Virus record (IMG/VR): IMGVR_UViG_3300042347_000370
Coordinates: 1 to 24,282 of that record
Length of the DNA stretch: 24,282 bases
Origin: a virus
Taxonomy: Duplodnaviria; Caudoviricetes
Direction: 5' to 3' (one strand)
Shown: positions 163 through 18,083 of the stretch, in pieces
Layout of the letters: each line of letters begins with the position of its first letter
Position numbering within the stretch: position 1 is the stretch's first letter
Program-made: the position numbers and the translations under genes
Notes under the pieces: generated by a model
What the model saw: only the letters and a program-made list of their open reading frames with translations
Told to the model about the DNA's origin: nothing
The model's database searches: none

Positions 163-164
163 GC

Positions 165-2434: not shown

Positions 2435-4122
2435 TTTCTCATATCCCTTTCTGCTAAACTAATTTCGCTTTCTGATACGTCAACGATAAGTCTCATCATA
2501 CCAGTGCGGCTAATGTACTGTGATTCCATTATCTCTTTAATATCTAAAATCCATTGTGATGGGGCATCGATAGGTACTTCAAAGATTAATTGGTCATGTA
2601 TCTGCAGTACCATTGTACAATCTAATTTGCTGATGTACTCGTCAATCTCAATCATTGCTTTTTTCACTACGTCAGCCCCACCACTTTGAATTAAATGGTT
2701 AGGTAAAGCGTAGCAAAACTCCCTGTCTGCGTAAAGCTTTCTTCCCGACCAACTCCTAACATAGCCCCTACCTCTCCCCACTGCTATAACATCATTAACT
2801 AACTGCTCAACTTTAGGTAAGGCCATGAAATATTTATTCTTAAGTCTTGTTGCTTCCTCTACTGAGATGCCAAGCATCGCAGCAATCTTATTAACCCCTG
2901 CTCCGTACAAGATAGCGAAGTTCAAAGTCTTTGCATACTTGCGCGACACACCAAACATATCGGCTGTGACCTGATGAAAGTCTGCTCCCCCCATCACTGC
3001 AGTGATTACGTGCATCTCACCTGCGTAGTCCGCCATCATACGGTACTCCATTTGAGAGAAGTCCATAGAGATGTACTTGTACCCCGGACGTGGCCTGAAG
3101 CAACCACGAATCACGAACTCCGAGTCACTCCCTTCTTCTTTAGGAATGTTCTGAAGGTTCGGGTCACTGTAGCTAAAGCGTCCAGTACGTGTACCTGCTT
3201 GCCACATGGCTGGGTGTATGATTCCACCACGATCCTTTAGGTTAAGGTACGATTCATAGTAGGTGTTAATTCTTTTCTTATAGGTTCTCATCTCTCTGAT
3301 TAGTGAGAGTTTCTTTCTGTCTTCATCGCATGTGTACGTATCTTTAAGGATGTCCTCGATCACATCATCTGTTACTGATGGATTGCCCTTCTCTGTCGTA
3401 GGCAATATGTACATTATATTTTTCTGAATGCTCTTAGCCGAGTCCACGAATTCTGTGCCAGCTACTTCTTTCCATAGGTTCATCTTTTCTTTTAGCTGGT
3501 GGCTTTCCCTATGGTATCCAGCTAGGGTGTACTCTTGGTTGAGCATCAGCCCTGTGCGCTCCATTCGATAGCAAACTGGTGTGAGCCTTGCTTCCATGTG
3601 CATAAGCTTAAGGTCATCAGCGTCCGCTTTCTCGAAGTACTCTATGCCTAACCGTCTCGTGATGCGTGAGTCAAGTAGGGCGTACTTCTTAAGTATGCTT
3701 CTGTCCACCTTGTCGTAGCGTGGAACTTTATATTCTTGTCCGAAGAAATTGCGCCGGGTCTCATAATGTTTCCCGGCTTTGATCGCCTCTTCCACTGCAG
3801 TGGATTTCTCCATGCCGTGGCGCTTGGCTTGGGCGGCTAATGAGTACTGCATATAGTCGTTACGAAGTATGCGTGCCATGAACGTTGTGTCGAATACGTT
3901 CTTTTTTGTTAGGTCTATTCCCCAGTGTGATAGCATTCTATATTCAAATTTTGAATTTTGGCAGATGATTTTGTCTGCCGCCATTACTAGCTCCGCAGCT
4001 TCTTTAGGGTCCTCGGTGTAGTAGTCAGCATCAGCAGTGGACACAGTAACGCAGAATGGTCTGTCTGTTTCTTCAAGCCCAGTTGTTTCACAGTCTAGCC
4101 CGATTATCATATATGCGTCCAT
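2419..4122 (-). CDS. polA: DNA polymerase family A with 3'-5' exonuclease domain
   Basis: ExoI GLDCETTG, ExoIII YALLD, TGRFSYSDPNLQNIP, motif A DFSQMEYR, motif B RKYAKTLNFAILYG, motif C LQIHDQL. The start may be the ATG at 4110, which overlaps the HNH stop as ATGA. Confidence 0.97.
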   Translation of the reverse strand: MDAYMIIGLDCETTGLEETDRPFCVTVSTADADYYTEDPKEAAELVMAADKIICQNSKFEYRMLSHWGIDLTKKNVFDTTFMARILRNDYMQYSLAAQAKRHGMEKSTAVEEAIKAGKHYETRRNFFGQEYKVPRYDKVDRSILKKYALLDSRITRRLGIEYFEKADADDLKLMHMEARLTPVCYRMERTGLMLNQEYTLAGYHRESHQLKEKMNLWKEVAGTEFVDSAKSIQKNIMYILPTTEKGNPSVTDDVIEDILKDTYTCDEDRKKLSLIREMRTYKKRINTYYESYLNLKDRGGIIHPAMWQAGTRTGRFSYSDPNLQNIPKEEGSDSEFVIRGCFRPRPGYKYISMDFSQMEYRMMADYAGEMHVITAVMGGADFHQVTADMFGVSRKYAKTLNFAILYGAGVNKIAAMLGISVEEATRLKNKYFMALPKVEQLVNDVIAVGRGRGYVRSWSGRKLYADREFCYALPNHLIQSGGADVVKKAMIEIDEYISKLDCTMVLQIHDQLIFEVPIDAPSQWILDIKEIMESQYISRTGMMRLIVDVSESEISLAERDMRKWHAA

Positions 4123-4592
4123 GTTCTTCTGTTTACGATATAAGAAACTGTAGATCGTGGTACTCTAAATCTTTCTGACACTTCTTTTATCAGAGCACCT
4201 TTATCAAACATCTTCCGCATATCTAAAACGATTGAGTCGGTTAGATTACTTCTACCACTTTTTGCTCCGTGGTTCGGTGTTCGCAATCCTGTCCTATACG
4301 CGTGGGAAATATTATGAGAGCAGTTACTCTCTTCTAAGTTTTCTATCCTATTGTTTAGTTTGTTTCCGTCTATGTGATTGATCTGAACAGGAGGGTAGCC
4401 CTTGTGAAAAACCCACACCAGTTGATGCACTAGAAATGCATACCTAATAGGTGTGCAGACATGAACTAATAAGTATCCGCTATTCTGTTGGCGACTTACT
4501 AATGGCATACCGTTAATGCCCAGTATAGTTCCATTGCTATTAACTGAGTAGCCTCTATCAAATGCCTTTTTAGCCATACTAAAGTTCTTCAC
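4107..4592 (-). CDS. Free-standing HNH homing endonuclease with C-terminal HTH
   Basis: VHQLVW...INHIDGNKLNNRIENLE...HN (HNH_3-type) and a C-terminal IKEVSERFRVPRSTVSYIV HTH. Confidence 0.9.
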   Translation of the reverse strand: MKNFSMAKKAFDRGYSVNSNGTILGINGMPLVSRQQNSGYLLVHVCTPIRYAFLVHQLVWVFHKGYPPVQINHIDGNKLNNRIENLEESNCSHNISHAYRTGLRTPNHGAKSGRSNLTDSIVLDMRKMFDKGALIKEVSERFRVPRSTVSYIVNRRTWTHI

Positions 4593-4609
4593 TTGGGCAC
4601 CCTTTTGAT

Positions 4610-4819
4610 TTACTTCTTAGCTTTACGTAAGATAGTCTTACGTGGCTTAGCTTCAACCACTGCAGTCTTCTGTACTGCTAGTGCATCTGTCATAATTGTG
4701 TTGATCACTCGTGATCGTGTTACACCTAGCTCTTGCGCCTTAGCGTTGATTGCTTTGTGTGTTGCTTTCTCGAAGGTAACTTGAGAGTTAACCTTATCTT
4801 TAATTGGATACGTTTGCAT
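4610..4819 (-). CDS. Small DNA-binding protein, ribbon-helix-helix (Arc/CopG-like)
   Basis: Alternating strand SQVTF, helix KATHKAINAKAQELG and second helix VTRSRVINTIM, with a basic tail. SD TAGGAG lies upstream. Confidence 0.65.
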   Translation of the reverse strand: MQTYPIKDKVNSQVTFEKATHKAINAKAQELGVTRSRVINTIMTDALAVQKTAVVEAKPRKTILRKAKK

Positions 4820-5591
4820 TGTATGCTCCTATTGTTGCTGTTTGAAATGGGAACTGTCCCACTTCTTTTAAATCACATTCTTTAATTCTTCTAACCCAGG
4901 TCTTCTCGAACACCCTGCTATCACCCTTTGCTTTCTCCCATGAAAATCCATGAGCCTTAGCTAGGTCCGTTGACTTGCCCCCGTCTTCCCAAGGCTTCTG
5001 AACTTTAGCACGTAGGTACACGTAGGGTGAGTTACGGTATGCTAGTAACTTGTCCAGAGTTGCACCGCTTGCCACTAACATCTGTCGCATTAGTTCCACA
5101 TCTGCAATCGCTCGGTGCAAGGTGCTTGGGTCAACTGGCACGCCGTGGTCTAATGCTACGTGCATCAGCTTCCATGACTTACACTTGTAGTTGGGCTTGT
5201 GATCTTTCAATGCACATGCCCAATTAATTGCCATGCCTTGTTCAATCGGTAGGCCCTGTCTATTTAGTTCAGCTGCCCACATGTTACGATCAAACTCCTC
5301 ATTGTAGGCTATAATCTTTTCAACTTCGTGGCGTTGAATAAGCTTAGTCACTTCATTAAAAGCGAAAGCTGGTGACTCACCAGCCTCAACTAATTCTGCA
5401 GTGGTGATGCCTGTAAGCTCCGTTATCTCCTCAGTAATGACTGGGTAGGATTGATCCCACACCAATGTGTTGAATCCTTCCTCAACATCCTGAAAATCCT
5501 CAGACACTACCATTGCTCCGATTTCTGTGATCCTATCGTTAGCAAAGTCTAGGCCAGTGGTCTCGGTATCTAACAATAGAACCTTACGCAT
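4800..5591 (-). CDS. DEDDh 3'-5' exonuclease (DnaQ/epsilon-like)
   Basis: LLDTETTG, AYNEEFD and HRAIAD motifs. Confidence 0.92.
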   Translation of the reverse strand: MRKVLLLDTETTGLDFANDRITEIGAMVVSEDFQDVEEGFNTLVWDQSYPVITEEITELTGITTAELVEAGESPAFAFNEVTKLIQRHEVEKIIAYNEEFDRNMWAAELNRQGLPIEQGMAINWACALKDHKPNYKCKSWKLMHVALDHGVPVDPSTLHRAIADVELMRQMLVASGATLDKLLAYRNSPYVYLRAKVQKPWEDGGKSTDLAKAHGFSWEKAKGDSRVFEKTWVRRIKECDLKEVGQFPFQTATIGAYNANVSN

Positions 5592-6373
5592 TAGAACCGA
5601 CCAGCTGACTGTGTCTCTGGGCTTACTGGTTGTGCTGTAGCTGCGCCATTGTCCGACTCATCTACTACCACATTAGTGCCACCCTTAGCGATCATGTTGT
5701 ACCAGTACTTAGCTTCTTCTACGTACTCCGCTGGCGTGTTACCCACTGGCACCACTGCAGTTTGTACATAGATTTGGTTCTTATCATTCTTAACTTTCTC
5801 ACCTGTCAATGCCATGATCACACCAGCTGGGGACTTCTTAGCCATCTTGTTACGTACGTACATGAGGTTCAATAATATCTGCCCTGCCTTGTACGATGTA
5901 GACTGAAAGCTAATAGTAACTGGCATAGCGGACGCTGTCTTAACCTGTGATAGTAATAGACAGAAGAAGTCTAAGCGACGGATACGCTTTTGTTCTGTGC
6001 CATCAGCAAGGGTTACGTTCCACTCCATGTTGTCATTGTAGTCAGGGTGCGTAGGGTCTTCGACTACTGGCAGGGTCTTAACCCATTCGTAGTTCTGCTC
6101 ACCTGCTTTCTTTTCCTGAATGCTCCACATCTTACGAACGTGGAATGGGATGAACTCAACACGTGCACTAGCGATGTCTCCGTATAGTTCCTTAGTTAAA
6201 GAGTCGCGGAACTCGCCGATCTTTGCGCCGTCTTCAGTAACCTGAATGCTCATCGGCTGCATGGTTAGAACCTTTGAGATCAGTAAGTCCTTACCTACAT
6301 TAACGTCATCGCCCCACTGAACAACATCAGTGCTAACTGCATTCTCTTGTCTTGGTACAACTTCATTACTCAT
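5591..6373 (-). CDS. Probable single-stranded DNA-binding or recombination protein
   Basis: 260 aa, beta-rich, with an acidic low-complexity tail ending in Phe. It lies between helicase and exonuclease. SD AAGGAG. Confidence 0.5.
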   Translation of the reverse strand: MSNEVVPRQENAVSTDVVQWGDDVNVGKDLLISKVLTMQPMSIQVTEDGAKIGEFRDSLTKELYGDIASARVEFIPFHVRKMWSIQEKKAGEQNYEWVKTLPVVEDPTHPDYNDNMEWNVTLADGTEQKRIRRLDFFCLLLSQVKTASAMPVTISFQSTSYKAGQILLNLMYVRNKMAKKSPAGVIMALTGEKVKNDKNQIYVQTAVVPVGNTPAEYVEEAKYWYNMIAKGGTNVVVDESDNGAATAQPVSPETQSAGRF

Positions 6374-6612
6374 TGCTCTAACTCCTTAAATACGTTGTAT
6401 GCTTTACCTTTGCGTAAGAAGTACTCTTGCTTCTGTGTTACTGCATAGACTACTCCAGTGCTAGTCAGTACCTCACTGCCTTTGTCTGTGTCCACGATGC
6501 ACACTATGTGTGGGATGTGTAACAAGATCTCGCCACCTGCTGGCGCTACCTCACCTTTAGCTGCTACCTTTGATTGTAGCGTAGCGCGTACTACGAATGT
6601 TTCTCTGCTCAT
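6370..6612 (-). CDS. Hypothetical protein
   Basis: SD AAAGGAG; TAATG and ATGA coupling to both neighbours. Confidence 0.7.
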   Translation of the reverse strand: MSRETFVVRATLQSKVAAKGEVAPAGGEILLHIPHIVCIVDTDKGSEVLTSTGVVYAVTQKQEYFLRKGKAYNVFKELEQ

Positions 6613-7079
6613 TATGACTCCTTTCTAAAGCCTAATATTTCTGTTGATGTTGGTTGACCTAAGCCAGGGATGTTCAATGCACCTGCGTCGATCTCTTTCT
6701 TTGCCCATGAATTAAGTGTTGCACTGTTAATGCTAATCATAGACCGTAGTACTTCTTCTCCGTACTTAGTCCTGATGTAGTTAAACAACTGCACTTTGTC
6801 CTCACCTGTCTTAGGGGTTGTGAAGTTCTGACGGTGCGATATGTATGCAGTGCCAGCACCAGGGGTTGTGAACTTGTCGCGGTTAACTACCTTAAGTAGC
6901 CCGATCAACTTAGCTTCCACTTCCTTTACTGCCGCTGCCTTCCTATCATACTCTTGCTCCGCTGTATCCTTCGCAATCCTAGCCGATGAAAGTTCTCTGA
7001 TGAACTGGTCAAGTTGCTCAAGCCTATCTTGAGGGACCTCTGCTTGTGGTTCATCCCACAAATCTAATTGATTTTCCAT
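6612..7079 (-). CDS. Phage replication-module protein with N-terminal coiled coil
   Basis: 155 aa with a helical N-half and C-terminal LNSW...IPGL. Preceded by AAAGGTAGG. Confidence 0.7.
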   Translation of the reverse strand: MENQLDLWDEPQAEVPQDRLEQLDQFIRELSSARIAKDTAEQEYDRKAAAVKEVEAKLIGLLKVVNRDKFTTPGAGTAYISHRQNFTTPKTGEDKVQLFNYIRTKYGEEVLRSMISINSATLNSWAKKEIDAGALNIPGLGQPTSTEILGFRKES

Positions 7080-7085
7080 TGTTGC

Positions 7086-8519
7086 CTACCTTTCGTTTAC
7101 ATCCCACTGCAGTATGGAATCTGCAACGGATTGTTTATTCACTAATGCTTCTGATACCAGCTCGTCTATAGTGCCGCGAGTAATTATATCTATGCGTGTA
7201 ACCTTTTCATGTACCTCGCTGCCTGCTCTATAATTACGTGCCTCTGACTGAAGGTCAGCTTCAAGGCTAAAGTTCTTAGAGTAATAGATAGAGTAGCTTG
7301 CCTCGACTAGGTTCACACCTACACCAGCTGCACTCTGGTTTGCTATCATAACCCTGACACTATCATCGTGCCTAAAGTTATTCATGTTCTTCTCACGTGC
7401 TGCGTGAGCTATGTCCCCATGTATCTCTCTATAGTTTATACCTAAGCTGCGGCATAACTCTGCAATCATTAGGTAGTTCTCTTTGAAGTTGGCCCAGACT
7501 ATAACCTTGTGTTGTGGCGTTAGGTCAACAAGTAAATCCTTTAGCACCTTGAGTCGTGGTACATTATCCAGTCGGTGTACTGTACCTATCTCATCCTTTA
7601 CAAATCCAGTCACCAACTGCTGTAGTCTTAGTGCCTTCGTTACTGCCAGCTGTGCTACCACGGCACGTGGTTCGTTGTGCTTAGATGTAAGCCACGTGAT
7701 GTACTCCTTAGCCATCTCTTTGTACATCCTGCTTTGGTCCGCGTTCATCTCACAGTACACTTCCTGTCTTACTAACGGAGGTAGGTCTAAGCATTCAGAC
7801 TTAAGTACACGTATGGCCTTAGCTGATATTTTATCCTGCAATTCTCCGAAGGTGAAAGGCTTGGGTGTCCACTTAGGAAAGTATCCTTGTGATCCTTTTC
7901 GCCCTGCGTTCTCGTCTTCAAAGTATAGATGCCTAAATGTATAGAAGTTCTTGCCAAAGGTATCACCTCTATCAAGCACACGGAACTGCATGAATATATC
8001 CTGCGATGAATTCAATATGGGTGTACCTGTTAGGATGTAGTTCGACTCAGTAATGTCAGCAAGCTGTACCACTTTCTTCGCACGTATAGAGTCGGGGTTC
8101 TTAAGCTTCTGTGATTCGTCACACACCATGATCTCAGGCTGCCACTGCAGTAGTGCGTTGAACACGTCATTCATCTCTACAGTTTCATAGTTAGTTATGA
8201 TGATCTTGTTTCGTTTTAGATCCTGCCCTAGCTCTTTGACTAAGGACATGAGCCTTCGCTTACCACTACCTGATAGTACCACGATGTCCGACTGGGGTAT
8301 CTTAGAGTACATAGCGAATTCTTTCTTCCAATTCTCACACACTATGATCGGGCAGAATATAATCGTGCGTCGTACCCTGTTAGCTGCGGCGTACTTACGC
8401 CTTATGATTTCAATCAGTGTGCGTGTCTTACCTGTACCCTGCTCGAAGAACAAACCAAGGTCACGCAGTGCTAACCCTGCATTGATGCCCACTGCCTGAT
8501 GTTTCCAAAGTTCTTTCAT
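7086..8519 (-). CDS. SNF2-family (SF2) helicase
   Basis: Walker A EQGTGKT, Walker B VCDESQ, motif III LTGTP, motif V AAGVGVNL and motif VI QSEARNYRAG. Confidence 0.95.
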   Translation of the reverse strand: MKELWKHQAVGINAGLALRDLGLFFEQGTGKTRTLIEIIRRKYAAANRVRRTIIFCPIIVCENWKKEFAMYSKIPQSDIVVLSGSGKRRLMSLVKELGQDLKRNKIIITNYETVEMNDVFNALLQWQPEIMVCDESQKLKNPDSIRAKKVVQLADITESNYILTGTPILNSSQDIFMQFRVLDRGDTFGKNFYTFRHLYFEDENAGRKGSQGYFPKWTPKPFTFGELQDKISAKAIRVLKSECLDLPPLVRQEVYCEMNADQSRMYKEMAKEYITWLTSKHNEPRAVVAQLAVTKALRLQQLVTGFVKDEIGTVHRLDNVPRLKVLKDLLVDLTPQHKVIVWANFKENYLMIAELCRSLGINYREIHGDIAHAAREKNMNNFRHDDSVRVMIANQSAAGVGVNLVEASYSIYYSKNFSLEADLQSEARNYRAGSEVHEKVTRIDIITRGTIDELVSEALVNKQSVADSILQWDVNER

Positions 8520-10873
8520 TACATACCCTTCTCTATTATCTTAATACCTTTACGTACCCTAATAGACTTACCATTCCTAAAGGCTACTACTGGGTCATTG
8601 CTTAGTACCTTACCTAGCCTTTTAAAGAAAGCTGCTGATGTTATTTGTCTATACCCATTAACATCAGAGTATCTCTTATACATCTCGTACATCTGATCGT
8701 TAGTTACTTCATCTGTCTCTACGTTAGTAACCTCAACCCAGTCGTTACGATACATCTGCACCACATCTGCACTCTCACGATACTGATTCAATAATACTTT
8801 AGACTCATCTGCATCTTCCCACACTGGGTTAGCTAGCAGGTCACGATACTGTGCTATCATCTTGTTACATATCCCAGGTAGTTCGGTGGCCCATATCCTT
8901 TCCTTAAGGTCGGGTATGTAGGCAGCATCTCCAGGTTCAACTTTAAAATCAAATGGAATAATACTTAAGCGACGATAGAATGCAGGGGTAAAATCTCCAG
9001 TCTCGGGCATCTCATTGAAGGATATAATAAACTTAGCTTTGTTCTCTACTGTGTATTCTTGGGAGTATAGTTTCTTTACGTTCATCGAACCACCTTGGGT
9101 TAACGTCTTGAACATGGATGACTCTTTGAATACATGCTTGCTCGACTCATCGGAGAAGTTAAAGAATTTGTGCACCAACTGCAGTCGTGCTTGTTTGTCG
9201 TTGATTATTTCATTAAGCGGTAGCTTGCTCACGTTGTCATCGCCTATCACCTTTCCCAATGTTTCCATGAACACCGACTTACCATTACTACCACTACCGT
9301 ATAGGATGAGACACTTCTGTATCCAATATGAATCATACGCAAGACAGTAGCCAGCAAAGCGCATCAGCCTAGTAACAAGCCTCTCTCTGCCAAGCATGAT
9401 CTGATCTAGGAATTGATCCCACAATGGGCACGTGGCACGTGGGTCGTAGTCATAAGGGATGACGTTAAAGAATCCATACTCAGGTCCGTGAGTCATGGTC
9501 TTATTATTAATGATGTCATAGACCACGTTCTTAAAGTTAAGCATGCCCCTTGCCGTACCTGCGAACTCACTGCGATTGACCACACTCTTGCACTGCATTC
9601 GATAGACAGTCTCTTCTATCTCTGACTTCGATGCACTTGGGTGTATGATTGAAGACACCCATTCCTTAACCCTCTGCAGTTCTAGCTCTTCCCAGTGGGT
9701 GCCGTTAAATATAATGAACTGCTTGGTGTCAGCTAGTACCCTGTAGTTACGTGATAGCTGGAACTCTTTAATGATGTCGTCGTATGCTGGCAATCCCGGC
9801 TTTAGATTGCCACGCTTATCAACCTTGCGCTCTCTAAATCCAAAGTCCTTACTGGCTATGTACTCAGGTCCTTTGATCTGAATGGGTGACTTAATTTTCT
9901 GCCAGTGTGGGCACTGCTTGCACCCATCAAACATGGTAGCTATATTGCTGCACGTACGTGGACCTGCACTTGCCAGTGCTTGCTTGATCTTAGCATCTGT
10001 CTCGTAAGTATTATATTGTGGGTGCCCTTCGGATAACCTATGGGTTAGTAGCTCGCCATCCTCTAAGCGTGAGGTAATGGATACCATAGCGTACCACTCG
10101 TACTCTTTAACTAAGGCAGGTTTGTTCTTGCAATGTTGGATGAACCCACACTCTGCGATCACGGCAGGGGAGTCGGGGGTCGGGTAGTTCTTAAGGACCT
10201 CATCGGTGATGACCTCATACGTGGCGTCACCTATCCCCGCTAGCGTTACAATGTCCCAAGGCACAGGTAGTATGGTCCCCTGTACTATCTCTGCCATGCG
10301 CACTGCTTTATCTTTCTTCTTATTCAGGGTGTTAGGCATACGCATGATACGTGCGTCGTCGAACACGGTAGGGTCTAGCTCACCAGCCACGCCCATTTCA
10401 TTCAGCTTAAGGCTTATCAGATCACAGAGTACACCGTAGTGTTTCTTGTACTTATCAAAGTAAGCTACGTCAGTGATGGGTGTGTCCATGTTTACAAAGA
10501 CTTGAACCCCATGCCCACTAAAGATTACACCTAGGCTAGTGACTGGCACCTTAACGACTGACGCCACTGCAGTGGCTACCTGCATACACGTGGTTTTATA
10601 GTTCTCGTTGTATGTGATGTTGTCTATGTCAAAGCAGATGGTGCGCATCTCTGCCATCTTACGCTTGGCGTCCTCATAGCAGTGAGCCATAGTGAAGTAA
10701 ATATTATACCGCTCTGCCTCGGGTATCTTATTAACTATCTCTAGTCCTTTAGGTCCGAAGACATCTTGGATAGAATCCAGACGCCAGCCCTCTTGAAAGA
10801 ACCTATCTGTTTTCTTAGTCTTGTTTGTTCTTTTATCAACGTACTCACGTAAGCCTAGTACCTGTATTAACAT
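8519..10873 (-). CDS. Primase-helicase: AEP-type primase, Cys-rich PriL-like domain and D5/P4-alpha SF3 helicase
   Basis: FDID, FSGHGVQ and RIMRMPNTLN in the primase domain. CGFIQHC...PRTC...CKQCPH form a likely Fe-S domain. Walker A GSGSNGKS, Walker B FSDE and AFYRR mark the helicase. Confidence 0.93.
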   Translation of the reverse strand: MLIQVLGLREYVDKRTNKTKKTDRFFQEGWRLDSIQDVFGPKGLEIVNKIPEAERYNIYFTMAHCYEDAKRKMAEMRTICFDIDNITYNENYKTTCMQVATAVASVVKVPVTSLGVIFSGHGVQVFVNMDTPITDVAYFDKYKKHYGVLCDLISLKLNEMGVAGELDPTVFDDARIMRMPNTLNKKKDKAVRMAEIVQGTILPVPWDIVTLAGIGDATYEVITDEVLKNYPTPDSPAVIAECGFIQHCKNKPALVKEYEWYAMVSITSRLEDGELLTHRLSEGHPQYNTYETDAKIKQALASAGPRTCSNIATMFDGCKQCPHWQKIKSPIQIKGPEYIASKDFGFRERKVDKRGNLKPGLPAYDDIIKEFQLSRNYRVLADTKQFIIFNGTHWEELELQRVKEWVSSIIHPSASKSEIEETVYRMQCKSVVNRSEFAGTARGMLNFKNVVYDIINNKTMTHGPEYGFFNVIPYDYDPRATCPLWDQFLDQIMLGRERLVTRLMRFAGYCLAYDSYWIQKCLILYGSGSNGKSVFMETLGKVIGDDNVSKLPLNEIINDKQARLQLVHKFFNFSDESSKHVFKESSMFKTLTQGGSMNVKKLYSQEYTVENKAKFIISFNEMPETGDFTPAFYRRLSIIPFDFKVEPGDAAYIPDLKERIWATELPGICNKMIAQYRDLLANPVWEDADESKVLLNQYRESADVVQMYRNDWVEVTNVETDEVTNDQMYEMYKRYSDVNGYRQITSAAFFKRLGKVLSNDPVVAFRNGKSIRVRKGIKIIEKGM

Positions 10874-10915
10874 CTATCCTACCTTAGAATTATTTGGGAA
10901 AGCACTAAGTTTGTC

Positions 10916-10944
10916 TTGACTGCTAGGCATGTGTCAAATAGTTT
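10916..10944 (+). promoter_or_regulatory. Sigma70-like promoter facing away from the primase, within a TTGAC-N12-GTCAA inverted repeat
   Basis: TTGACT (10916-10921), 17-nt spacer, TAGTTT (10939-10944). A TTGACA on the - strand (10937-10932) overlaps it. Confidence 0.55.
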
Positions 10945-10949
10945 CAATG

Positions 10950-11023
10950 CCGCACAGTACTCTTAGCCTACCTTCGATTGCTTGCACTTAGGGCTGCGTA
11001 TTAAAACCACGCGGCCCTTTTCT
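10950..11023 (+). ncRNA. Candidate ~75-nt small RNA
   Basis: Bounded by the + strand promoter and a + strand intrinsic terminator, in an intergenic gap of an otherwise - strand arm. Contains GCCUACCUU. Confidence 0.5.
10990..11023 (+). terminator. Intrinsic terminator, + strand
   Basis: Stem AGGGCTGCGT/ACGCGGCCCT with a 9-nt loop, then TTTCTATTT. One pair is a U-G wobble on + but a C-A mismatch on -. Confidence 0.7.
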
Positions 11024-11116
11024 ATTTAGTGTACAGTAAGTACACAAGCCAAGCTGCAACACCAAAGGCTAGTATGTACTTAAATATTCCAAGTGAATGG
11101 AATGCTGCTTCGTGAA

Positions 11117-11362
11117 TCACTTGCTCACACAGTCCATAACATTGGACTCCACTTGCTCTAGTATTTCATACGGATAGTCGGTGCTCATCTCACATATCTT
11201 ATCACTGCAGTGGGCTTTCTCTTGCTCAAAGCACTGCTTGATTTTGTTGAGAAGAATGTCCTCTCCTTTGCGCATACCGTGCACTCCAATGGACACAGTC
11301 ATTACTATAAGTACAACCATACACCATGCAGCGACGGCTTCCCAACTTATATAATTTCTCAT
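11117..11362 (-). CDS. Small membrane-anchored hypothetical protein
   Basis: N-terminal hydrophobic helix AVAAWCMVVLIVMTVSIGV and three more Cys. Preceded by AAAGGTAG. Confidence 0.65.
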   Translation of the reverse strand: MRNYISWEAVAAWCMVVLIVMTVSIGVHGMRKGEDILLNKIKQCFEQEKAHCSDKICEMSTDYPYEILEQVESNVMDCVSK

Positions 11363-11434
11363 AACTCTACCTTTCTTGGACGAGTGGGCATCAACCTACT
11401 TAAAGATGTCTAGCCCACTGCGACTCAATGATTC

Positions 11435-11617
11435 TTATTTAATCTTAACCCATCCAGCTTTGTGCGCTTGCTGTGCACTACCGAATGCATCCTTTAGTTC
11501 ACGACCTGTAGTCTTGTGCTTGAACTTAAGCACTCGCTTCGCTGAATTCTTAGGGTACTCATACCCTGCAACAAACAGCTGGCCTTTAAACTTCTTTGTA
11601 TTTCTCCACTCGTTCAT
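11435..11617 (-). CDS. Small basic hypothetical protein
   Basis: 60 aa; SD AAAGGAG directly after the E1 stop codon. Confidence 0.7.
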   Translation of the reverse strand: MNEWRNTKKFKGQLFVAGYEYPKNSAKRVLKFKHKTTGRELKDAFGSAQQAHKAGWVKIK

Positions 11618-11628
11618 ACGTAACTCCT

Positions 11629-12297
11629 TTATTGAAACATCTGTACGTTATTAGATGACTTGTTTAGGTTCATCAGTATTGACTTAGGATGTGGCTCATC
11701 GGCAAGAATATTCTTCACTGCCTTGCACACCATGCTGCCTGCCGTCAGTGCTGTATAGATGGTGGACTTAGCGGTGCACCTCTCTGCTACTGCTTCCGCA
11801 TCAGTGTATAGTGTCTTGCCGTACGACTTAATGCTATCCTCACTGCGCATGTTGACCACGTACTGGTTGTACACCTCTGCCCCCATGCGTGTGTCGATCA
11901 TCCACTTGGCCTTAAGCTTAGTGTGTAGCTCGCGTCGTGCTTCCATACTATCCACTGCCATAACCACGATGTCGAACCTATCCTCACTGCCTTCAAACTT
12001 ATGAAGAACTGCAGTGATCATAACTTCTGTGAAGTCATAAACCAATGACTGTAGTGCGGTGGCCTTCGGCCTACCTATATCTTTGAACCTATAGAATTGG
12101 TTGTTCATGTTGACCGTGTCCACTGTATCGAAGTCATACACCGTGATGTCATTGACACCCATCTTAGCCAGCGCAAGAGTGGCAAAGCTACCGATAGCAC
12201 CGCATCCTATGACCAGCACCTTCAGTGCCTCGACCTTGTGTACTGGTATTAGATCGGCCTGCCTCATTAAGTCTTCTCGTTTAATTATCTTGTCCAT
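11629..12297 (-). CDS. E1-like ubiquitin-like-protein activating enzyme (ThiF/MoeB fold)
   Basis: N-terminal RQ, GCGAIG nucleotide loop, DFDTVDTVNMNNQ, IGRPKA, AVDS and candidate catalytic Cys174 (ERCT). No CxxC zinc motifs. Confidence 0.93.
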   Translation of the reverse strand: MDKIIKREDLMRQADLIPVHKVEALKVLVIGCGAIGSFATLALAKMGVNDITVYDFDTVDTVNMNNQFYRFKDIGRPKATALQSLVYDFTEVMITAVLHKFEGSEDRFDIVVMAVDSMEARRELHTKLKAKWMIDTRMGAEVYNQYVVNMRSEDSIKSYGKTLYTDAEAVAERCTAKSTIYTALTAGSMVCKAVKNILADEPHPKSILMNLNKSSNNVQMFQ

Positions 12298-13166
12298 TAC
12301 ATGTATCCTTTCACTTGCATTAACTTCTCTAGTTCATACTCATATTTCATTAGCTCTTGGTATTCGTTTCGCTCTAGTGCCCTACGATACACACCCTCTG
12401 TTAGTCCTAATAGCTCTGCCTCATCAGCTACACCAAACCCCATGATGCCGTGGTTCTTAACATCCTCGTGGTGCAACCCTGCCGTGGCATACAGTTCCTT
12501 TTGTGCTAATGCAGGTAGTACTAGCTGCGCCGATGGCGTCGCCTTCCCTTCCTTTTCTTCCGCTTCTTTCTTCGCTGCGAATTCTTGCCACGATGTATGC
12601 TGTGTGTAAGCACGCTCTTTAACTTTCTCTGTGAATTCAGCATCCCATTCCGCGATGCGTGGGTCACTAGTGTACTCGTACGTGGTCTCGATGTTATCCA
12701 TTAGGTGCACGTCTAGCTGTGTAGTCTCGCCGAATGCAGTTGTCTTAACAGTAGTTACTGCCTTGGTGCACACCGCTGATCTAATAGAACCTAGCTGGTT
12801 GAACACACTGGCTACGCATAGTCCGTTCTTACCTATCGACTTGATAGTCTCGGTATCTGTACCACTCCAGAAAGTATTCATCCTAACGTGGCTATGCCAC
12901 CACCAGTTAAGGCTTAGATGCCGGGTGTCTGGGTTAGCCACGATCTTATGCATGAGCTTGCCCAATGACTTAGCGTCGATGTCAGTGTGTGCTGCACCCA
13001 CCTCTTGATCGAGTAAGAATGCATCATGTACATACACACGATAAGAGCCATCGTCATCACGGGTAATACTCGTAGTACCAAACCCCGATACTTCTTTATC
13101 TGCCTTGTGCACCCAGTGTTGAACCTTCTTATATGCCAGTTCACTAATAACCAATTTGATATTCAT
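12297..13166 (-). CDS. JAB/JAMM (MPN+) metallopeptidase
   Basis: Glu25 (KEVSGFG) and HSHVRMNTFWSGTD give HxH-x7-S-x2-D (H91, H93, S101, D104), followed by a long C-terminal extension. Confidence 0.9.
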   Translation of the reverse strand: MNIKLVISELAYKKVQHWVHKADKEVSGFGTTSITRDDDGSYRVYVHDAFLLDQEVGAAHTDIDAKSLGKLMHKIVANPDTRHLSLNWWWHSHVRMNTFWSGTDTETIKSIGKNGLCVASVFNQLGSIRSAVCTKAVTTVKTTAFGETTQLDVHLMDNIETTYEYTSDPRIAEWDAEFTEKVKERAYTQHTSWQEFAAKKEAEEKEGKATPSAQLVLPALAQKELYATAGLHHEDVKNHGIMGFGVADEAELLGLTEGVYRRALERNEYQELMKYEYELEKLMQVKGYM

Positions 13167-14968
13167 GTGTCACTCCATTGCGCTATCGCGCTTCGTGTAA
13201 TAGGACGCCATCCATCCATGTGGGATGCATCCTTGATGTAAATGTTTTCATCGCACCGTTGATCGGTGCCCTCATAGTATCGTGCAAAGATCTGGTATTT
13301 ATACGTATCACCATGTGAAGGTAGTACCTTATGTTCTATGTACTCATCTGAATACTTACCTATCACCCATGCCAGTGGTTTAGTATCACGCGCTGGCTGA
13401 AATACTTTCTTCATGCTCTCGTACTTAGTCTTGTTCCTAAGTAGATCGAACTGAATTAGCTTGCGATAAGGTGAGCCCGGATTGTAGTCGGATAGTATTG
13501 ATCTAACTATCTTAAAGATAGTGGATAGCTTAGCCGTCTTGCGTGCTGCCTCGTACGCATCACGTCCAGTTCCCCAACATACACTACCACTGCCGTTAAC
13601 ATGTGGATGTCTATACCCATCAATGACTAGGTTGTCCGCTAGTGGGTGTACATCTACACTGCCATCGTGCCAGTAGAATGATACCATGAATGTACCCATG
13701 AGTACGTTCATTGGTTTAATATCTGGGTGTTGGCAGTACACTTTATCCGTTGAGAATGTTATTGCCTCGTCATCTATCTCCATTAAATCCCAGTACCCAT
13801 CTGCAAGTAACGTCTCAACTTCTTTAGTTAGGTCCTTGTTCATGGTCATGTTAGCTAGCATGTTGTCTATCTCATCCTGCAATCTATATAGCTTAGTGTA
13901 CTGCTCACTCAATGATCTATTAAGACCTTCGATGTTGACATTAGTAGAGACGAGTGACTTAACCTTGGCCTTGTACTCGGGAGAATTCTCCACCGAATAG
14001 GCACGTGCTATAAGCTTACGCTGCTCTTCTGTTAGTTGCTTAGGGCTGCGTGGTGCACCCTTCTTAGCTATGATATACTGATTGATCTCACTCTGCGATT
14101 GCAGTGTGTTCATGTGGGTGATGTCATCATTCGTGAGGCGTACCCCAATGAGCGATGCCATGATTTTACCCTTATCTACCAGTGGTTTATTCGCACCACT
14201 TGGTGCTACCTTTTCTGCCTGCATTGTATCTCCTTCCTCGCCTACCGATGAGGGGTTTGTTTCATTATTAAATTGTTGTGCTACCACGTCCGCTAATCTA
14301 TCAACGAACGGTCGCATGAAGTTATCCATCGGGCTTACTGCTACCTCGTCAACGATAGTATCAAAGAACGACCTGCCCCTTAGTCCACGTGACTCTGATT
14401 GCAGGGTGTTGTATTCATTTATCAACCTAGCCTGATCGCGTGAATAATCTAATGGTGAGTGTGTGCGCGCCCTCTGCTCTAGTATCGTGCGTCGTGTGCT
14501 GTCCATCCTCTCTTGTTCTTCATCCGTTGGTGGATAGTACCCTCTAAAGTGTACCGCATCGCCTTCACTAGCTGCTACCCATGTGCCGTGCTGCGTGAGG
14601 TGATAGTCCCATCTTATGCGTGGCACTTGTTGTCTCTGCTCGCGTGGGTCTGCGAATCTACCAGTGAATTCACGTGTATATTCCGGTGACTCTGGTGTTA
14701 CAACCTCGCTGTTAATTGTCGCAAGCCTACGAGTAAGCCACTCCTCTAGTCTGTATTGTTCTTGCCCATCGCTTGGTTCATAGGCTAACACTGCAGTGGG
14801 CTCCATCATTATAGCGATGCAGAATTCTCGTGCCTCTTCCGCTGTCTCAACTGTAGTGTACAGTGTCCATGAATTATAAAATCCTGATGTGTTTGTTCTT
14901 TGTAATCTATATATGCGAACGCGCCGAGTGATGCTGTCTCGTGGTTCATTAGCCCACATGTATGTCAT
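13163..14968 (-). CDS. Multidomain protein with a prokaryotic E2 (UBC-like) conjugating domain
   Basis: HPHVNGSGSVCWG (Cys464) matches the E2 HP(N/H)-x4-G-x-x-C signature, followed by a helix ending LSDYNPGSPY. A coiled-coil-like stretch precedes it. It lies between the Ubl and JAB genes. Confidence 0.8.
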   Translation of the reverse strand: MTYMWANEPRDSITRRVRIYRLQRTNTSGFYNSWTLYTTVETAEEAREFCIAIMMEPTAVLAYEPSDGQEQYRLEEWLTRRLATINSEVVTPESPEYTREFTGRFADPREQRQQVPRIRWDYHLTQHGTWVAASEGDAVHFRGYYPPTDEEQERMDSTRRTILEQRARTHSPLDYSRDQARLINEYNTLQSESRGLRGRSFFDTIVDEVAVSPMDNFMRPFVDRLADVVAQQFNNETNPSSVGEEGDTMQAEKVAPSGANKPLVDKGKIMASLIGVRLTNDDITHMNTLQSQSEINQYIIAKKGAPRSPKQLTEEQRKLIARAYSVENSPEYKAKVKSLVSTNVNIEGLNRSLSEQYTKLYRLQDEIDNMLANMTMNKDLTKEVETLLADGYWDLMEIDDEAITFSTDKVYCQHPDIKPMNVLMGTFMVSFYWHDGSVDVHPLADNLVIDGYRHPHVNGSGSVCWGTGRDAYEAARKTAKLSTIFKIVRSILSDYNPGSPYRKLIQFDLLRNKTKYESMKKVFQPARDTKPLAWVIGKYSDEYIEHKVLPSHGDTYKYQIFARYYEGTDQRCDENIYIKDASHMDGWRPITRSAIAQWSDT

Positions 14969-14988
14969 TATGCCTACCTTATGTACGA

Positions 14989-15018
14989 CCAGTGCACACC
15001 CATTCAGATGTGCACCAG
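14989..15018 (-). promoter_or_regulatory. mRNA hairpin between the Ubl and E2 genes
   Basis: On the - strand, CUGGUGCACAUCU-GAAU-GGGUGUGCACUGG forms 13 bp including four G-U pairs. No U-tract follows. Confidence 0.6.
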
Positions 15019-15029
15019 TACTCTATTAC

Positions 15030-15239
15030 TTACGCACCTTTTACTTTTTCAGATAGTGTTACCACTGCATGTGACTCAAGTTGAATCGACATATCTGATT
15101 CGGGTTCACCGTTTACAGTAGCAGCATACCCTCTATAGGCAGCGTCTAATGCAAGCACGTCCCCTAATGTAGCACCGTCTGCGATGTCAAACGATTTCAA
15201 TTCACCGCCCATAATTTGAACGAATACTTTTTTAGCCAT
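15030..15239 (-). CDS. Ubiquitin-like beta-grasp protein (ThiS/MoaD-like)
   Basis: 69 aa: KVFVQIMGG...ATLGDVL...ATVNGE...LESHAVVTL-SEKVKGA, with penultimate Gly68. Strong SD AAAGGAG. Confidence 0.88.
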   Translation of the reverse strand: MAKKVFVQIMGGELKSFDIADGATLGDVLALDAAYRGYAATVNGEPESDMSIQLESHAVVTLSEKVKGA

Positions 15240-15275
15240 AGCTATCTCCTTTATTTCTGGTGTACGTACACCATG

Positions 15276-15695
15276 TTAAAACGGAATTACTTCCGTGTTG
15301 TTATTGTTGTCCTCATGTACTGGTATCTCAACCAGTGGTTCTATTGCAGTGGCTGCCTTCTTAGTCGGTGCTTGTATCGCACTGATGTCTTGCTTAGTCA
15401 TCTCAAGTATAGCCATGTCACGCTTGCGCTTCTCAAGTGGGGTGAGCACTGGTGTGTCCACTGTCTTGATGATATGCACTGCCTCGGTCTCATCTACTGC
15501 GGTAAAGGCAGATACTATTTCTATATAGTCCGTCTTTGCAAGTAGCTTATCAACGAATCCTTGCACCGCATAAGTGTGGTTGTCCTGCATGCTAATGGCA
15601 GGGTTAACTTGATAGACCTCGCTGCCTGCTGCGTGGTTCAAGTACAAACGTGGTGGCTTATGCTGTGATACCCTTGTTCGTATTGCTTGGTTCAT
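15276..15695 (-). CDS. Hypothetical protein directly upstream of the Ubl gene
   Basis: Start reassigned from 15764 to the ATG at 15695 (MNQAIR), which has SD AGAGG and an ATGA overlap with the upstream stop. Confidence 0.65.
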   Translation of the reverse strand: MNQAIRTRVSQHKPPRLYLNHAAGSEVYQVNPAISMQDNHTYAVQGFVDKLLAKTDYIEIVSAFTAVDETEAVHIIKTVDTPVLTPLEKRKRDMAILEMTKQDISAIQAPTKKAATAIEPLVEIPVHEDNNNNTEVIPF

Positions 15696-15928
15696 TTGAA
15701 CGCCTCTAAAGATAAGAGTAATGTCACCGGACCACACGCTATAAGAATGAAAGGCATGTACCACATATCTCTGTAAGCCTGCACCCCTGCCTTCATGCGT
15801 ATCTTAAACCGCTCTGTCTTTGTGAACTCATCCTGTCTATTGATGCTAATGTATATGCTTCGTGCTTCGAGGATAAGGAATCCCAGTACACCGCATGCAC
15901 ACCAGCCTAGTAGTATCTGCATTATCAT
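15692..15928 (-). CDS. Small membrane protein with two hydrophobic segments
   Basis: ILLGWCACGVLGFLIL and WYMPFILIACGPVTLLL; ATGA coupling at both ends. Confidence 0.65.
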   Translation of the reverse strand: MIMQILLGWCACGVLGFLILEARSIYISINRQDEFTKTERFKIRMKAGVQAYRDMWYMPFILIACGPVTLLLSLEAFK

Positions 15929-16344
15929 ACCGATACCTCTATCTCTGATTGTCCCACTCGTTTGAACACTGTAGTTCCTTGGTTTAGTTGAGCAAAGTGT
16001 GCGTCATCCTTATAGTACATCGCCGATTGATACCAGCAACTACCCTTTTGGAATGCATAGATGGCAACCTTCACGGTGCGTGGTTCGGGGGTAGTGTTGT
16101 TACCCTTCACCACTAACTGGTATTGGTCATCGTCCTCAATCATCTCATCTGCTAACTGCTCGCAATCAGAAGCCACGATCAAAGAGTTACCTTCTATGTC
16201 CTCAAGTACTGCGAATAGATCACACTTGTACATGACCGCATAAACTTTGGGCCTGCCACTGTATGGTATTAGTACCACATCGAAAGGCAGGGGGGTGTTA
16301 GCATTAGCCCGAATGATCTCATGTAAATATTTCTTGTTAGCCAT
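15925..16344 (-). CDS. Hypothetical protein
   Basis: 139 aa; TAATG coupling to the upstream gene. Confidence 0.7.
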   Translation of the reverse strand: MANKKYLHEIIRANANTPLPFDVVLIPYSGRPKVYAVMYKCDLFAVLEDIEGNSLIVASDCEQLADEMIEDDDQYQLVVKGNNTTPEPRTVKVAIYAFQKGSCWYQSAMYYKDDAHFAQLNQGTTVFKRVGQSEIEVSV

Positions 16345-16667
16345 TAGCTCTGTCCTTTGTGAATGAATAAATCCGCTAGCGTGTACGACGTGCCCACCAT
16401 TGCAGGGGTAGGATATTCCGAGGCTTGTGACTGGACCATAGAGCAGAGGATAGAGAGCGCAACATGCTGCCTGATTGTCATCTCAAATAGAGGCTGTGCA
16501 CCGGGGTTAGGTTCGGGTTTCTTCCAAGACTTGGCTAGCTCTTCCGTTTTCTTTAACAGGTCATCGGCAATGCTTATTGCTTGATCGATGTTGCTCATGG
16601 CAGGGGGTGCTACCTCGGGGGTAGCGCCTAGCTCTGGGTGCTGTGTAAATAGTTTGTCTTTCTCCAT
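16344..16667 (-). CDS. Hypothetical phage protein
   Basis: SD AAAGGAG. The C-terminal MTIRQHVALSIL...SYTLADLFI resembles, from memory, the common phage 'MTLRDYFA...AY..AD.ML' small domain. Confidence 0.7.
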   Translation of the reverse strand: MEKDKLFTQHPELGATPEVAPPAMSNIDQAISIADDLLKKTEELAKSWKKPEPNPGAQPLFEMTIRQHVALSILCSMVQSQASEYPTPAMVGTSYTLADLFIHKGQS

Positions 16668-16669
16668 TG

Positions 16670-16969
16670 TTAGTACTCCTTTGTTTGTACGTTGTTAAGA
16701 TCTATTGTTATGGGTTCGTGTATCGGGTATCTCTCGACCACACCGTCGAGGGCAGTTAGTTCAACGTGCATTACGAACTTAATAGTACGCACACGTATGC
16801 AGTGTCGTGGTCTATACGTCGCAAGCCATGTGTTGATAGCCTTACGTGTGGATTGAGTAACCCATCCGCCAGTGTCGAACTTGATTTCATTTGTAAAGTT
16901 ATCGCATCGTACTACGGCAGTGTTGTATAGTACTGCCTTATGATTCTCTAGCTTAAGTCCGCGTTGCAT
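16670..16969 (-). CDS. Hypothetical early phage protein
   Basis: 99 aa with LYNTAVV...DTGGWVTQSTRKAIN. Preceded by AAAGGTAGG. Confidence 0.7.
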   Translation of the reverse strand: MQRGLKLENHKAVLYNTAVVRCDNFTNEIKFDTGGWVTQSTRKAINTWLATYRPRHCIRVRTIKFVMHVELTALDGVVERYPIHEPITIDLNNVQTKEY

Positions 16970-17007
16970 TTAAGTCCTACCTTTCTGCTTGTTGTTTAGT
17001 GTCTAAC

Positions 17008-17026
17008 TGTACAGTCACTGTACTGT
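17008..17026. repeat. Palindromic operator-like repeat, copy 1
   Basis: TGTACAGTCACTGTACTGT, identical to 18047-18065, with core GTACAGT-C-ACTGTAC. Confidence 0.7.
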
Positions 17027-17340
17027 CAACATTTATTTTTATAGTCTTGAAATTTTTTCTTATCGATTACTAATACATCAGTAGTTGTATTGAATGCCAT
17101 GAAGCTACGTGTTTTGTAGAAATCAAAATCGAATTTAAATCCAGTGGATTGCGGCGCTGTTATTACTACTGCCTTAACGTATGGGTGCAAGCCTTGAGCA
17201 CGAAGCATGGCATTGATAGTCTTTACTTCGTTAACCCCTTGGGTGCTTGAGTCGCGGTGCAAATGCAGGGTGATAGTCTCGGGAGTATCCTCTAGGGTTA
17301 GAAGTATCTTGTCTTTATATTTAACTGTTAGTTTGTTCAT
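17026..17340 (-). CDS. Hypothetical protein
   Basis: 104-aa ORF with SD TAGGA. Confidence 0.65.
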   Translation of the reverse strand: MNKLTVKYKDKILLTLEDTPETITLHLHRDSSTQGVNEVKTINAMLRAQGLHPYVKAVVITAPQSTGFKFDFDFYKTRSFMAFNTTTDVLVIDKKKFQDYKNKC

Positions 17341-17680
17341 GTTTTCCTATTAAGTTTGATGTCAAGTGTTACTTTATTTTTCTTATTTTTTCATTACACT
17401 TACCTGTTAAGAAATCTTTACCCGTAATGTTAGAGTTAGTGCTCTAATTAAATCTTAACCATTCCTTGATGACTCGTTGTTTAATTGCCTTTTATTACAG
17501 TTTCGATGTGTAATGTGGGGGATGTAGTGTAATGCAGGAATCGTGAGTCGTGTTGCGTAGTTACAATCCAGTATTACACATTACATTAAAACTATTCTCT
17601 ATAAAGTTTTAAAGTGTATACAGGAATATACATATAAACACATATATAGGAACTGCTGGAAAATCGATGTGTAATGTCAG
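17341..17680. repeat. AT-rich non-coding region with GTGTAATG iteron-like repeats in both orientations; candidate replication origin
   Basis: TCGATGTGTAATGT at 17503-17516 and 17664-17677, GTGTAATG at 17527-17534, CATTACAC at 17392-17399, ATTACACATTACA at 17573-17585. Confidence 0.55.
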
Positions 17681-17690
17681 GCTCACTGCA

Positions 17691-17933
17691 TTATCGAACC
17701 CCGAATCTCAATCGAATACACCACAACTTGCCGTCTATCGCCGCTAACACCCTGCCATCCTCGCACCTCGCCTCACGGCGCTCTCTAACCCTGCGGTCAA
17801 GGTCCGCGTGCCACTGGGCCACGATACGTGAGTCACGAACGCAATCAGCGTCACACTTGGTGTCCGCTTTCGCGGACCACGAACCAAGCGCATAGACAAT
17901 CAGGCTTGCATAGAACAAAAGAAATAGTTTCAT
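17691..17933 (-). CDS. Small exported protein
   Basis: Signal-peptide-like N-terminus ending SAKA|D, four Cys, TAATG-coupled to the upstream micro-ORF. Confidence 0.55.
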   Translation of the reverse strand: MKLFLLFYASLIVYALGSWSAKADTKCDADCVRDSRIVAQWHADLDRRVRERREARCEDGRVLAAIDGKLWCIRLRFGVR

Positions 17934-18034
17934 TAGTTACCAGCCCTTGCGTGAGCAATGGCAAGAGCCACGAACCCCGACGCGAACACGATAGTATACA
18001 TTGTAGCGAAGTCATTAACGAATGCAGATAACAT
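17933..18034 (-). CDS. 33-aa single-helix membrane microprotein (not in the ORF track)
   Basis: SD AGGAG then ATG at 18034: MLSAFVNDFATMYTIVFASGFVALAIAHARAGN. Its stop overlaps the next ATG (TAATG). Confidence 0.6.
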   Translation of the reverse strand: MLSAFVNDFATMYTIVFASGFVALAIAHARAGN

Positions 18035-18046
18035 ATAAGCTCCTAG

Positions 18047-18065
18047 TGTACAGTCACTGTACTGT
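18047..18065. repeat. Palindromic operator-like repeat, copy 2
   Basis: Identical 19-mer to 17008-17026, nested in the longer inverted repeat TAGTGTACA (18044-18052)/TGTACACTA (18069-18077). Confidence 0.7.
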
Positions 18066-18083
18066 TGTTGTACACTACCCTAT

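Follow-up and report, generated by a model that had tools for sequence, protein, structure and literature searches.

Among the closest described counterparts of the RNA considered here is C4 of P1 and P7, a phage-encoded RNA of about 77 nt in which a short loop pairing occludes the ribosome-binding site of its own mRNA; small changes in the loop set specificity between sister phages (excerpts of PMC5320573). The P4 CI RNA restrains the replication genes of its phage through base pairing to short complementary stretches close by (excerpts of PMC4825925), and P22 sar and lambda OOP are small phage antisense RNAs that repress one phage gene post-transcriptionally (partial text of PMC12197685). 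These described phage RNAs acting on phage genes (C4, CI, sar and OOP) belong to temperate lysis-lysogeny decisions. Sar and OOP overlap their target genes. CopA of R1 and RNA I of ColE2, which are cis-encoded and fully complementary to their targets, cap replication-initiator translation in proportion to copy number. OrzO, IstR and OhsC are divergent from their target gene and pair, in a partner-specific way, through a repeated leader segment (excerpts of PMC3919570). Table S1 of PMC12197685 lists 38 uncharacterised phage sRNAs, and a virulent-phage transcriptome gives candidate RNAs without assigned targets, classing an RNA upstream of the PAK_P3 primase/helicase with 5'UTR-derived candidates (PMC10914365); the available portions of these two papers contain nothing with a primase-divergent RNA layout. 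A search of mostly open-access literature found no description of a primase-linked antisense RNA.

We analysed a 24,282-base virus record over its full length, called the window below, in which a predicted small RNA gene lies upstream of a primase-helicase gene. The likeness to C4 (RF01695) is one of complementarity: in both, a phage mRNA has a ribosome-binding site complementary in sequence to a phage RNA loop. As C4 appears in the excerpts, it has three stem-loops and two pairing loops, whereas the window RNA has two hairpins, one of them the terminator, and one seed loop. C4 is cut by RNase P from a precursor, whereas the predicted promoter and terminator of the window RNA suggest a primary transcript. 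C4 serves immunity and lysogeny, whereas 12 near-complete relatives of the window have no integrase, and the window RNA appears to have a primase-helicase as main target together with several dispersed ones. Rfam gave no gathering-level match in the window or in 17 related loci, and C4 was absent among the matches of the gap at E<=10. A C4 model search found nothing in 15 related records but was uninformative, its control genomes giving no match either. The suhB/MmgR family (RF00519) was rejected, its score of 14.8 bits (E 1.4, gathering threshold 41 bits) coming largely from the terminator. P4 CI is described as processed from a same-strand leader, with premature termination at seqA and seqC, whereas the window RNA is on the opposite strand and its predicted targets are ribosome-binding regions; a sense terminator, as in a CI-type layout, was found near the primase in just 1 of 45 lineages of the family, and the unit is antisense to the operon. 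The first-pass annotation had set the locus beside C4 and CI. These stand as analogies only, the tests of the C4 covariance model, the C4 stem-loops and the CI strand and layout having failed.

The RNA gene resembles the OrzO type, as partly described, in being divergent from its target gene and not overlapping it, but there 18-19 nt of complementarity are directed at one small toxin mRNA, while the matches here are 8-9 nt long, reaching 16 in one relative, and concern several non-toxin phage genes. A type I toxin-antitoxin target is a small hydrophobic toxin paired over 15-19 nt; the target here is a 784-aa primase-helicase, matched over 8 nt. Sar and OOP have one target each in the lysis-lysogeny decision as seen in the excerpts, whereas the window RNA has its pairing sites outside the RNA gene. 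The role inferred for the window RNA is like that of the plasmid copy-control RNAs, which differ in being cis-encoded and fully complementary. By prediction the locus has what characterises trans-encoded bacterial sRNAs: its own promoter, an intrinsic terminator, an exposed seed and several short targets.

The predicted RNA gene and its matching sites

Profile matches place polA, a DEDD exonuclease, a Pam3 gp34-like gene, a gp33-like gene, an SNF2 helicase and a D5-type primase-helicase on the minus arm of the window, and a terminase, a portal and a Bbp19-like gene on the plus arm. The primase-helicase gene (8519-10873, minus strand, 784 aa) has D5_N, DUF5906 and Pox_D5 domains. Upstream of it sits a ubiquitin-like cassette of ThiF/E1, JAB, E2-like and a 69-aa Ubl candidate. 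The JAB assignment follows from 31 of 46 homologues matching Prok-JAB. The E2-like protein has weak PDB matches, nearly all to UBC enzymes (best E 0.01), and no named family was found for it in the ESM Atlas; only gene order points to the 69-aa ORF as the Ubl.

The gap upstream of the primase contains a predicted sigma70-type promoter on the plus strand (10916-10944), with TTGACT at -35 (10916-10921), a 17-nt spacer and TAGTTT at -10 (10939-10944). It lies where the first-pass annotation had placed it, though it agrees with 8 of 12 consensus bases, the -10 being weak, and a stock promoter and terminator scan of the window listed neither it nor the RNA terminator. It overlaps, back to back, a predicted primase promoter on the minus strand (10908-10937), with TTGACA at -35 (10937-10932) and, as a weak candidate -10, CAAACT (10913-10908). 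The predicted RNA runs from 10951 to 11022 on the plus strand, about 72 nt with the start placed to within 2 nt, and consists of a 5' hairpin (10952-10985) followed by an intrinsic-terminator-like hairpin with a U-rich tail (10990-11028, the hairpin itself 10990-11018, -17.5 kcal/mol). The terminator folds better on the plus strand (z -4.36 over 10985-11030) than on the minus (z -2.11 over 10975-11030) and its U tract, though short, is on the plus side, as had been claimed. The whole unit (10945-11025) gave z -3.43 on the plus strand and -0.73 on the minus. The apical loop of the 5' hairpin, CCUAC (10967-10971), has a computed unpaired probability of about 0.9.

The seed, GCCUACCUU (10966-10974, plus strand), spans this loop. 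An exact count of its 8-mer CCTACCTT across the window gave five copies on the plus strand and none on the minus. One copy is in the RNA loop and the other four stand as its complement 4-6 nt before start codons; the 9-mer GCCTACCTT is at 7084, 10966 and 14972, and the 8-mer additionally at 10878 and 16976. The gap to the ATG is 4 nt for the primase, 5 nt for the gene starting at 7079, 4 nt for the E2-like gene and 6 nt for the gene starting at 16969, so all four sites stand and all their coordinates are correct, but the range given for them, 4-7 nt, becomes 4-6 nt. The chance level had been put at about 0.4 per strand, and 300 dinucleotide shuffles of bases 1-18300 agree, with a mean of 0.44, a maximum of 3 and never 5.

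The primase target, AAGGUAGG (10878-10885, minus strand), is 4 nt from the start, and its 8-mer is kept in the related lineage L274. The target of the gp33-like (Pam3) gene (6612-7079) spans 7084-7108 on the minus strand; it has a 9-nt seed match with a duplex predicted to extend to -29, and its net pairing energy, -17.2 kcal/mol, is the best among 35 leaders. The E2-like gene (13163-14968) has AAGGUAGGC at 14972-14980 on the minus strand (net -10.8), which the L274 orthologue does not share. The fourth copy, AAGGUAGG at 16976-16983 on the minus strand, precedes the gene at 16670-16969 and lies directly behind a TTGACA promoter-like site. These four targets are ranks 1-4 of the 35 leaders by net pairing energy, partly by construction. 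A weaker 7-nt target, AAGGUAG (11367-11373, minus strand), precedes the gene at 11117-11362, and the CTACCTT at 11367 on the plus strand bears out the earlier report of a 7-nt version there; the site ranks 6 of 35 by pairing energy and is altered at 11367 in one relative. The Ubl and E1 leaders carry a plain AAAGGA. Seed pairing in the window amounts to only 8-9 bp.

Read on the coding strand, the tag AAGGTAGG stands before 4 of 26 called genes in the window, and AGGTAGG before 3 of 28 genes in L274. Across the other 43 lineages the tag precedes 1 of 450 genes, which supports the view that the tag is private to the line of the window and L274. A second segment of the RNA, CAGTACTCT at 10955, also occurs in the E2 leader at 15016. 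That match, AGAGUACUG (15016-15024, minus strand), is real, but a role as a second seed does not follow: it is not colinear with the seed, it belongs to a stem strand and it is absent in L274. As CAGUACUCU the segment matches 46-47 nt upstream of both the E2 and the gp34-like gene, and the match in the E2 leader is probably incidental.

A relative about 98% identical, from three DNA runs, has three differences over 10780-11070, all at 11055-11057 and outside the RNA unit. A relative about 94% identical, a single contig of depth 3.8 from run X23, has 10 substitutions and 3 indels in 10874-10931 and no listed change in 10932-11036, with the target 8-mer and both -35 boxes intact. Charging the two unlisted differences of this contig to the RNA leaves 13 changes in 58 nt of spacer against 2 in 105 nt of the RNA stretch (p=3e-5). 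Runs X23 and X24 are guessed to be RNA and their contigs carry no strand, so X23 was used purely as a sequence variant. No RNA dataset was listed for the region, a result without bearing on expression.

In L274/L208, where the primase is 57% identical to that of the window, the promoter TTGAC-17-TAGTTT and the hairpin are kept, the loop is CCUACCU and the terminator differs in sequence. The L274 seed is GCCUACCUC. The L274/L208 seed CCUACCUC is matched by GAGGTAGG in the gp33-like leader and by GAGGTAGGCTA in the polA leader. Between the window and L274, a U in the seed is replaced by C and an A in the gp33-like site by G, and the orthologous site, GAGGUAGG, matches CCUACCUC. The L274 primase leader retains AAGGTAGG; there the seed change was not followed, and 7 pairs are left. 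The gap of the sister lineage L273 (primase 51% identical) has no seed, and plain AAAGGAAT stands at the primase and the gp33-like gene. L273 has AAGGTAGG before E1, and a 97%-complete member has AGGTAGG only once. The tag can thus stand without a seed, as a relic or an ordinary site.

Layout and matching across the family

Viral contigs searched with single proteins (primase, E1) gave no relatives, and no close relative of the window was found among GenBank phages; the relatives were recovered with alignments as queries. Loci were required to include the primase N-terminus and 260 nt or more of upstream sequence; the 62 that qualified were grouped into 45 lineages, the window included. A further 11 primase loci reached through a JAB alignment, some of which duplicate counted clusters, were kept out of the statistics, and 47 loci from a DNA pattern scan were taken as chance matches and excluded from the analysis.

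The same layout, with other seeds, is present in distant relatives. An antisense terminator upstream of the primase, defined as a hairpin at least as stable as -12 kcal/mol followed by a T tail, occurs in 20 of 45 lineages, against 1 of 45 for a sense terminator and 3 of 68 for control genes; in 25 of the 45 this strict form is absent. In 30 of 45 lineages a sense TTGAC is found between -100 and -35 relative to the primase start; among other genes this holds for 34 of 442. An antisense promoter of the TTG..TA type overlaps the sense -35 in 16 of 45 (3 of 68 control genes), and antisense promoter and terminator occur together in 10 of 45 lineages and in none of the 68 control genes. The 5' domains fold better than their shuffles (mean z -1.64; downstream control +0.14), and this folding has no strand preference (p=0.37).

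The test of seed against target used the 20 units selected on the terminator alone, with the primase region defined as -25 to +3. A match of 7 nt or more between the 5' domain and its own primase region was found in 10 of the 20, against 17 of 378 swapped pairs (p=4e-8); the other 10 have no 7-nt match within 25 nt of the start. Seed and target therefore covary in related phages, which had been suggested as a check on the RNA. Without the window and L274 the mean match is 7.2 against 5.3 (p=0.002). Each unit compared with its own shuffles gives 7.25 against 5.42 (p=7e-5, n=24 including four relaxed terminators), 9 of the 24 reaching p<0.05 individually, and when the fold is the sole criterion for the loop, the values are 6.4 and 4.3 (p=0.0009, n=18).

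Distant lineages share no seed sequence, and several of the matches lie outside the Shine-Dalgarno core, such as AACGCGTGA in L224, CAGCTTTGGA in L235, TTCCTGGCAAGA in L243 and CAACTAGAAA in L230. The matching units are scattered over a quick primase tree with a median end branch of 0.72, which suggests that the seed-target pairs are largely independent. The tree is descriptive, omitting three of the 45 rows (L253, L254 and L255) and carrying hand-picked seed labels.

Outside the primase, leaders with a match of at least 8 nt are also in excess (22 of 285, against 184 of 5364 swapped; p=0.0006), although part of the 22 are probably chance matches, being AT-rich or derived from promoters. Among the clearest are those of L243, whose unit has a 16-nt match before an HNH gene and a 12-nt match before a gene of no named product. 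The polA leader matches over 13 nt in L231 and 11 nt in L274, and L294 has the seed 8-mer before an exonuclease gene. By gene, matches of at least 7 nt were found for E2 in 3 of 6, polA in 3 of 11, gp33-like in 3 of 11, SNF2 in 0 of 11 and Ubl in 0 of 4; the significance of E2 (p=0.018) and polA (p=0.026) is nominal and uncorrected. For the four genes of the Ubl cassette taken together, 5 of 23 matched, compared with 37 of 428 swapped (p=0.052); for the replication genes together it was 8 of 61, compared with 77 of 1145 (p=0.059). The first-pass proposal that the RNA co-regulates replication and Ubl genes thus holds for the primase match and for the E2 site in the window, while family-wide the Ubl part is borderline. 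As the matches outside the primase vary by lineage, the primase seems to be a fixed target and the rest a shifting set.

Alternative explanations and proposed mechanism

The comparison with relatives supports a trans-pairing antisense RNA that has its own predicted promoter and terminator and a seed that tracks the primase ribosome-binding region and that of certain other phage genes. We consider it probable that this is a primary small RNA whose loop pairs with tagged ribosome-binding regions and blocks initiation at the primase and a few other phage genes.

Alternatively, the repeats could act at the DNA level, as iterons or operators that flank the promoter pair and make up an origin or an autoregulatory site; their ligand would be the primase-helicase, through its winged-helix domain, or a different phage protein. 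Direct repeats would covary equally, and such a domain is consistent with what is described in part of PMC2777425. The flanking mismatches also show no bias towards G-U wobble (36 wobble-type against 46 opposite-type, p=0.89), in a set that contained many chance 7-mers. However, the copies stand 4-6 nt before start codons, up to 6 kb away and on a single strand, and the enrichment is confined to same-strand leaders, where the 8-mer density is 2.32 per kb against 0.94 elsewhere and 1.16 on the opposite strand of those leaders. One copy forms part of a hairpin loop, with a promoter on one side and a strand-specific terminator on the other, and the constraint covers the whole 105 nt, well beyond the 8-mer. 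We therefore think DNA sites an unlikely explanation.

It is also unlikely that the RNA is real but works otherwise, in cis on read-through mRNA or as an anti-Shine-Dalgarno RNA on host mRNAs, with the extra phage matches incidental. The gene does lie between two minus-strand genes in a family nearly devoid of sense terminators, the secondary targets are not conserved across lineages, and our target scan covered phage leaders. Yet pairing in cis requires no match between seed and leader, and the primase match is the strongest signal in the family; the matches of 11-16 nt to distant phage leaders in three lineages likewise speak against it.

Rather improbable is a barrier terminator joined to a relic duplicate of the primase leader, with AAGGTAGG an ordinary strong ribosome-binding variant. 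The tag is like a Shine-Dalgarno sequence, it occurs before E1 in the seedless L273, and about half of the lineages have no unit or no match. Such a variant would not be expected before so few leaders elsewhere, and a relic would not account for matches that persist with unrelated sequences on long branches, often outside the Shine-Dalgarno core, or for the excess of fixed-window matches of at least 7 nt at primases (21 of 45) over other genes (101 of 439, p=0.0008). A leaderless micro-peptide gene (ATG 10947, 14 codons) is very improbable, for although the window and L274 both have a short 5' ORF (14 and 17 codons), five of the ten units with both promoter and terminator lack an ATG within their first 25 nt, the remaining peptides are unrelated, the seed frame differs between the two closest phages and the window ATG is 2 nt from the -10.

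On the reading we prefer, that of a small RNA repressing tagged phage leaders, we infer transcription, pairing, repression, promoter competition and copy-number feedback as follows. Host RNA polymerase would make the RNA from TTGACT-17-TAGTTT, and as this promoter overlaps that of the primase, the two would compete. The loop CCUAC would nucleate on AAGGUAGG, which stands in for the plain AAGGAG of other genes, and keep the 30S subunit off. If mRNA from the upstream arm read through the gap, the RNA would also be complementary to it along its whole length. Accumulating as genome copies increase, the RNA would limit how much primase-helicase is made, and expression of the replication arm would thereby come under negative feedback in a phage that does not integrate. 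A gene that gained the tag would enter the regulon, and the secondary targets would therefore differ by lineage.

The role is likely to be dosage control or shut-off of replication-arm translation and not a lysogeny switch, because the 15 related records, of which 12 have a completeness of 90% or more, yielded no tyrosine integrase, no serine recombinase over the cut-off (one weak match) and no ParA. HTH_3 was likewise over the cut-off in 0 of the 15, with five weak matches. A missing integrase is not decisive against lysogeny, since P1 itself lysogenises as a plasmid, but a plasmid state is not indicated here, given that ParA was found in none of the records.

In this family the RNA is predicted to act mainly on the replicative primase-helicase, and about ten seed-target pairs occur naturally, with no sequence relation between them. 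If the proposal is right, phage replication would be under dosage control at the RNA level, a regulon could grow simply as ribosome-binding sites acquire the tag, and the units would make up a collection of translational repressors, mutually orthogonal and ready for use. With about ten unrelated natural pairs a specific test is cheap: each RNA should repress its own leader alone. More speculatively, and we would not expect it to hold in full, this may be a private, lineage-specific RNA address system in which feedback on copy number is linked to the primase, seeds and tags are rewritten wholesale, genes such as those for Ubl conjugation or homing nucleases join by tag, and the seed distinguishes self from non-self, so that in co-infection no phages but close kin are silenced.

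Other features of the window and its relatives

A perfect 15-nt palindrome, GTACAGT-C-ACTGTAC, occurs twice, at 17009-17023 and 18048-18062, each time inside the same exactly repeated 19 nt. In one instance it takes up the spacer of the minus-strand TTGACA promoter-like site before the 16969 gene, itself a seed target; a half site lies within the E2-like gene (14857-14864) and a related dyad directly past the RNA terminator (11029-11045). The palindrome is a candidate operator of a phage repressor. Its binder could be a 69-aa ORF at 4610-4819 on the minus strand, ribbon-helix-helix-like by eye and with no Pfam or PHROG match. Directly behind the second copy is an unlisted 33-codon hydrophobic ORF (about 17930-18031, minus strand) with an AGGAG site, whose stop overlaps the start of the gene at 17933. 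A minus-strand upstream mini-ORF, with a GTG 11 nt behind the gap copy of the motif, was rejected; the equivalent start is absent in L274.

At 11212-11435 the relative of about 98% identity swaps 222 nt for 177 others, a stretch that spans the start of the 11362 gene and its 7-nt seed site. This relative was assembled in 21 small DNA runs (X2-X22) from 14 studies under one organism label, which could be that of the host or reflect a shared contaminant. L273 is within a bin titled Pedobacter and possibly mis-binned.

The cassette of E1 (ThiF), JAB, E2-like and Ubl-like genes (11629-15239, minus strand) also adjoins the primase in L273, L274, L231, L278 and L284. The E2-like protein has 601 aa in the window and about 350-410 in four of the cassette-bearing relatives. 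In L274 (3979-5584) the JAB gene is in two pieces flanking a 191-aa ORF, which suggests an inserted nuclease or intron. Between the two arms of the window, upstream of the terminase small subunit, a G/C-skewed non-coding stretch (18230-18480) is a candidate origin or packaging region. The SNF2 leader of L224 (12999-13037) carries GCAAGAAATAGGA, a 13-mer that is also a match to the RNA of L243 and to its HNH leader (L243 13073-13088), although the L224 seed differs; the leader may have been exchanged or a second RNA may exist.
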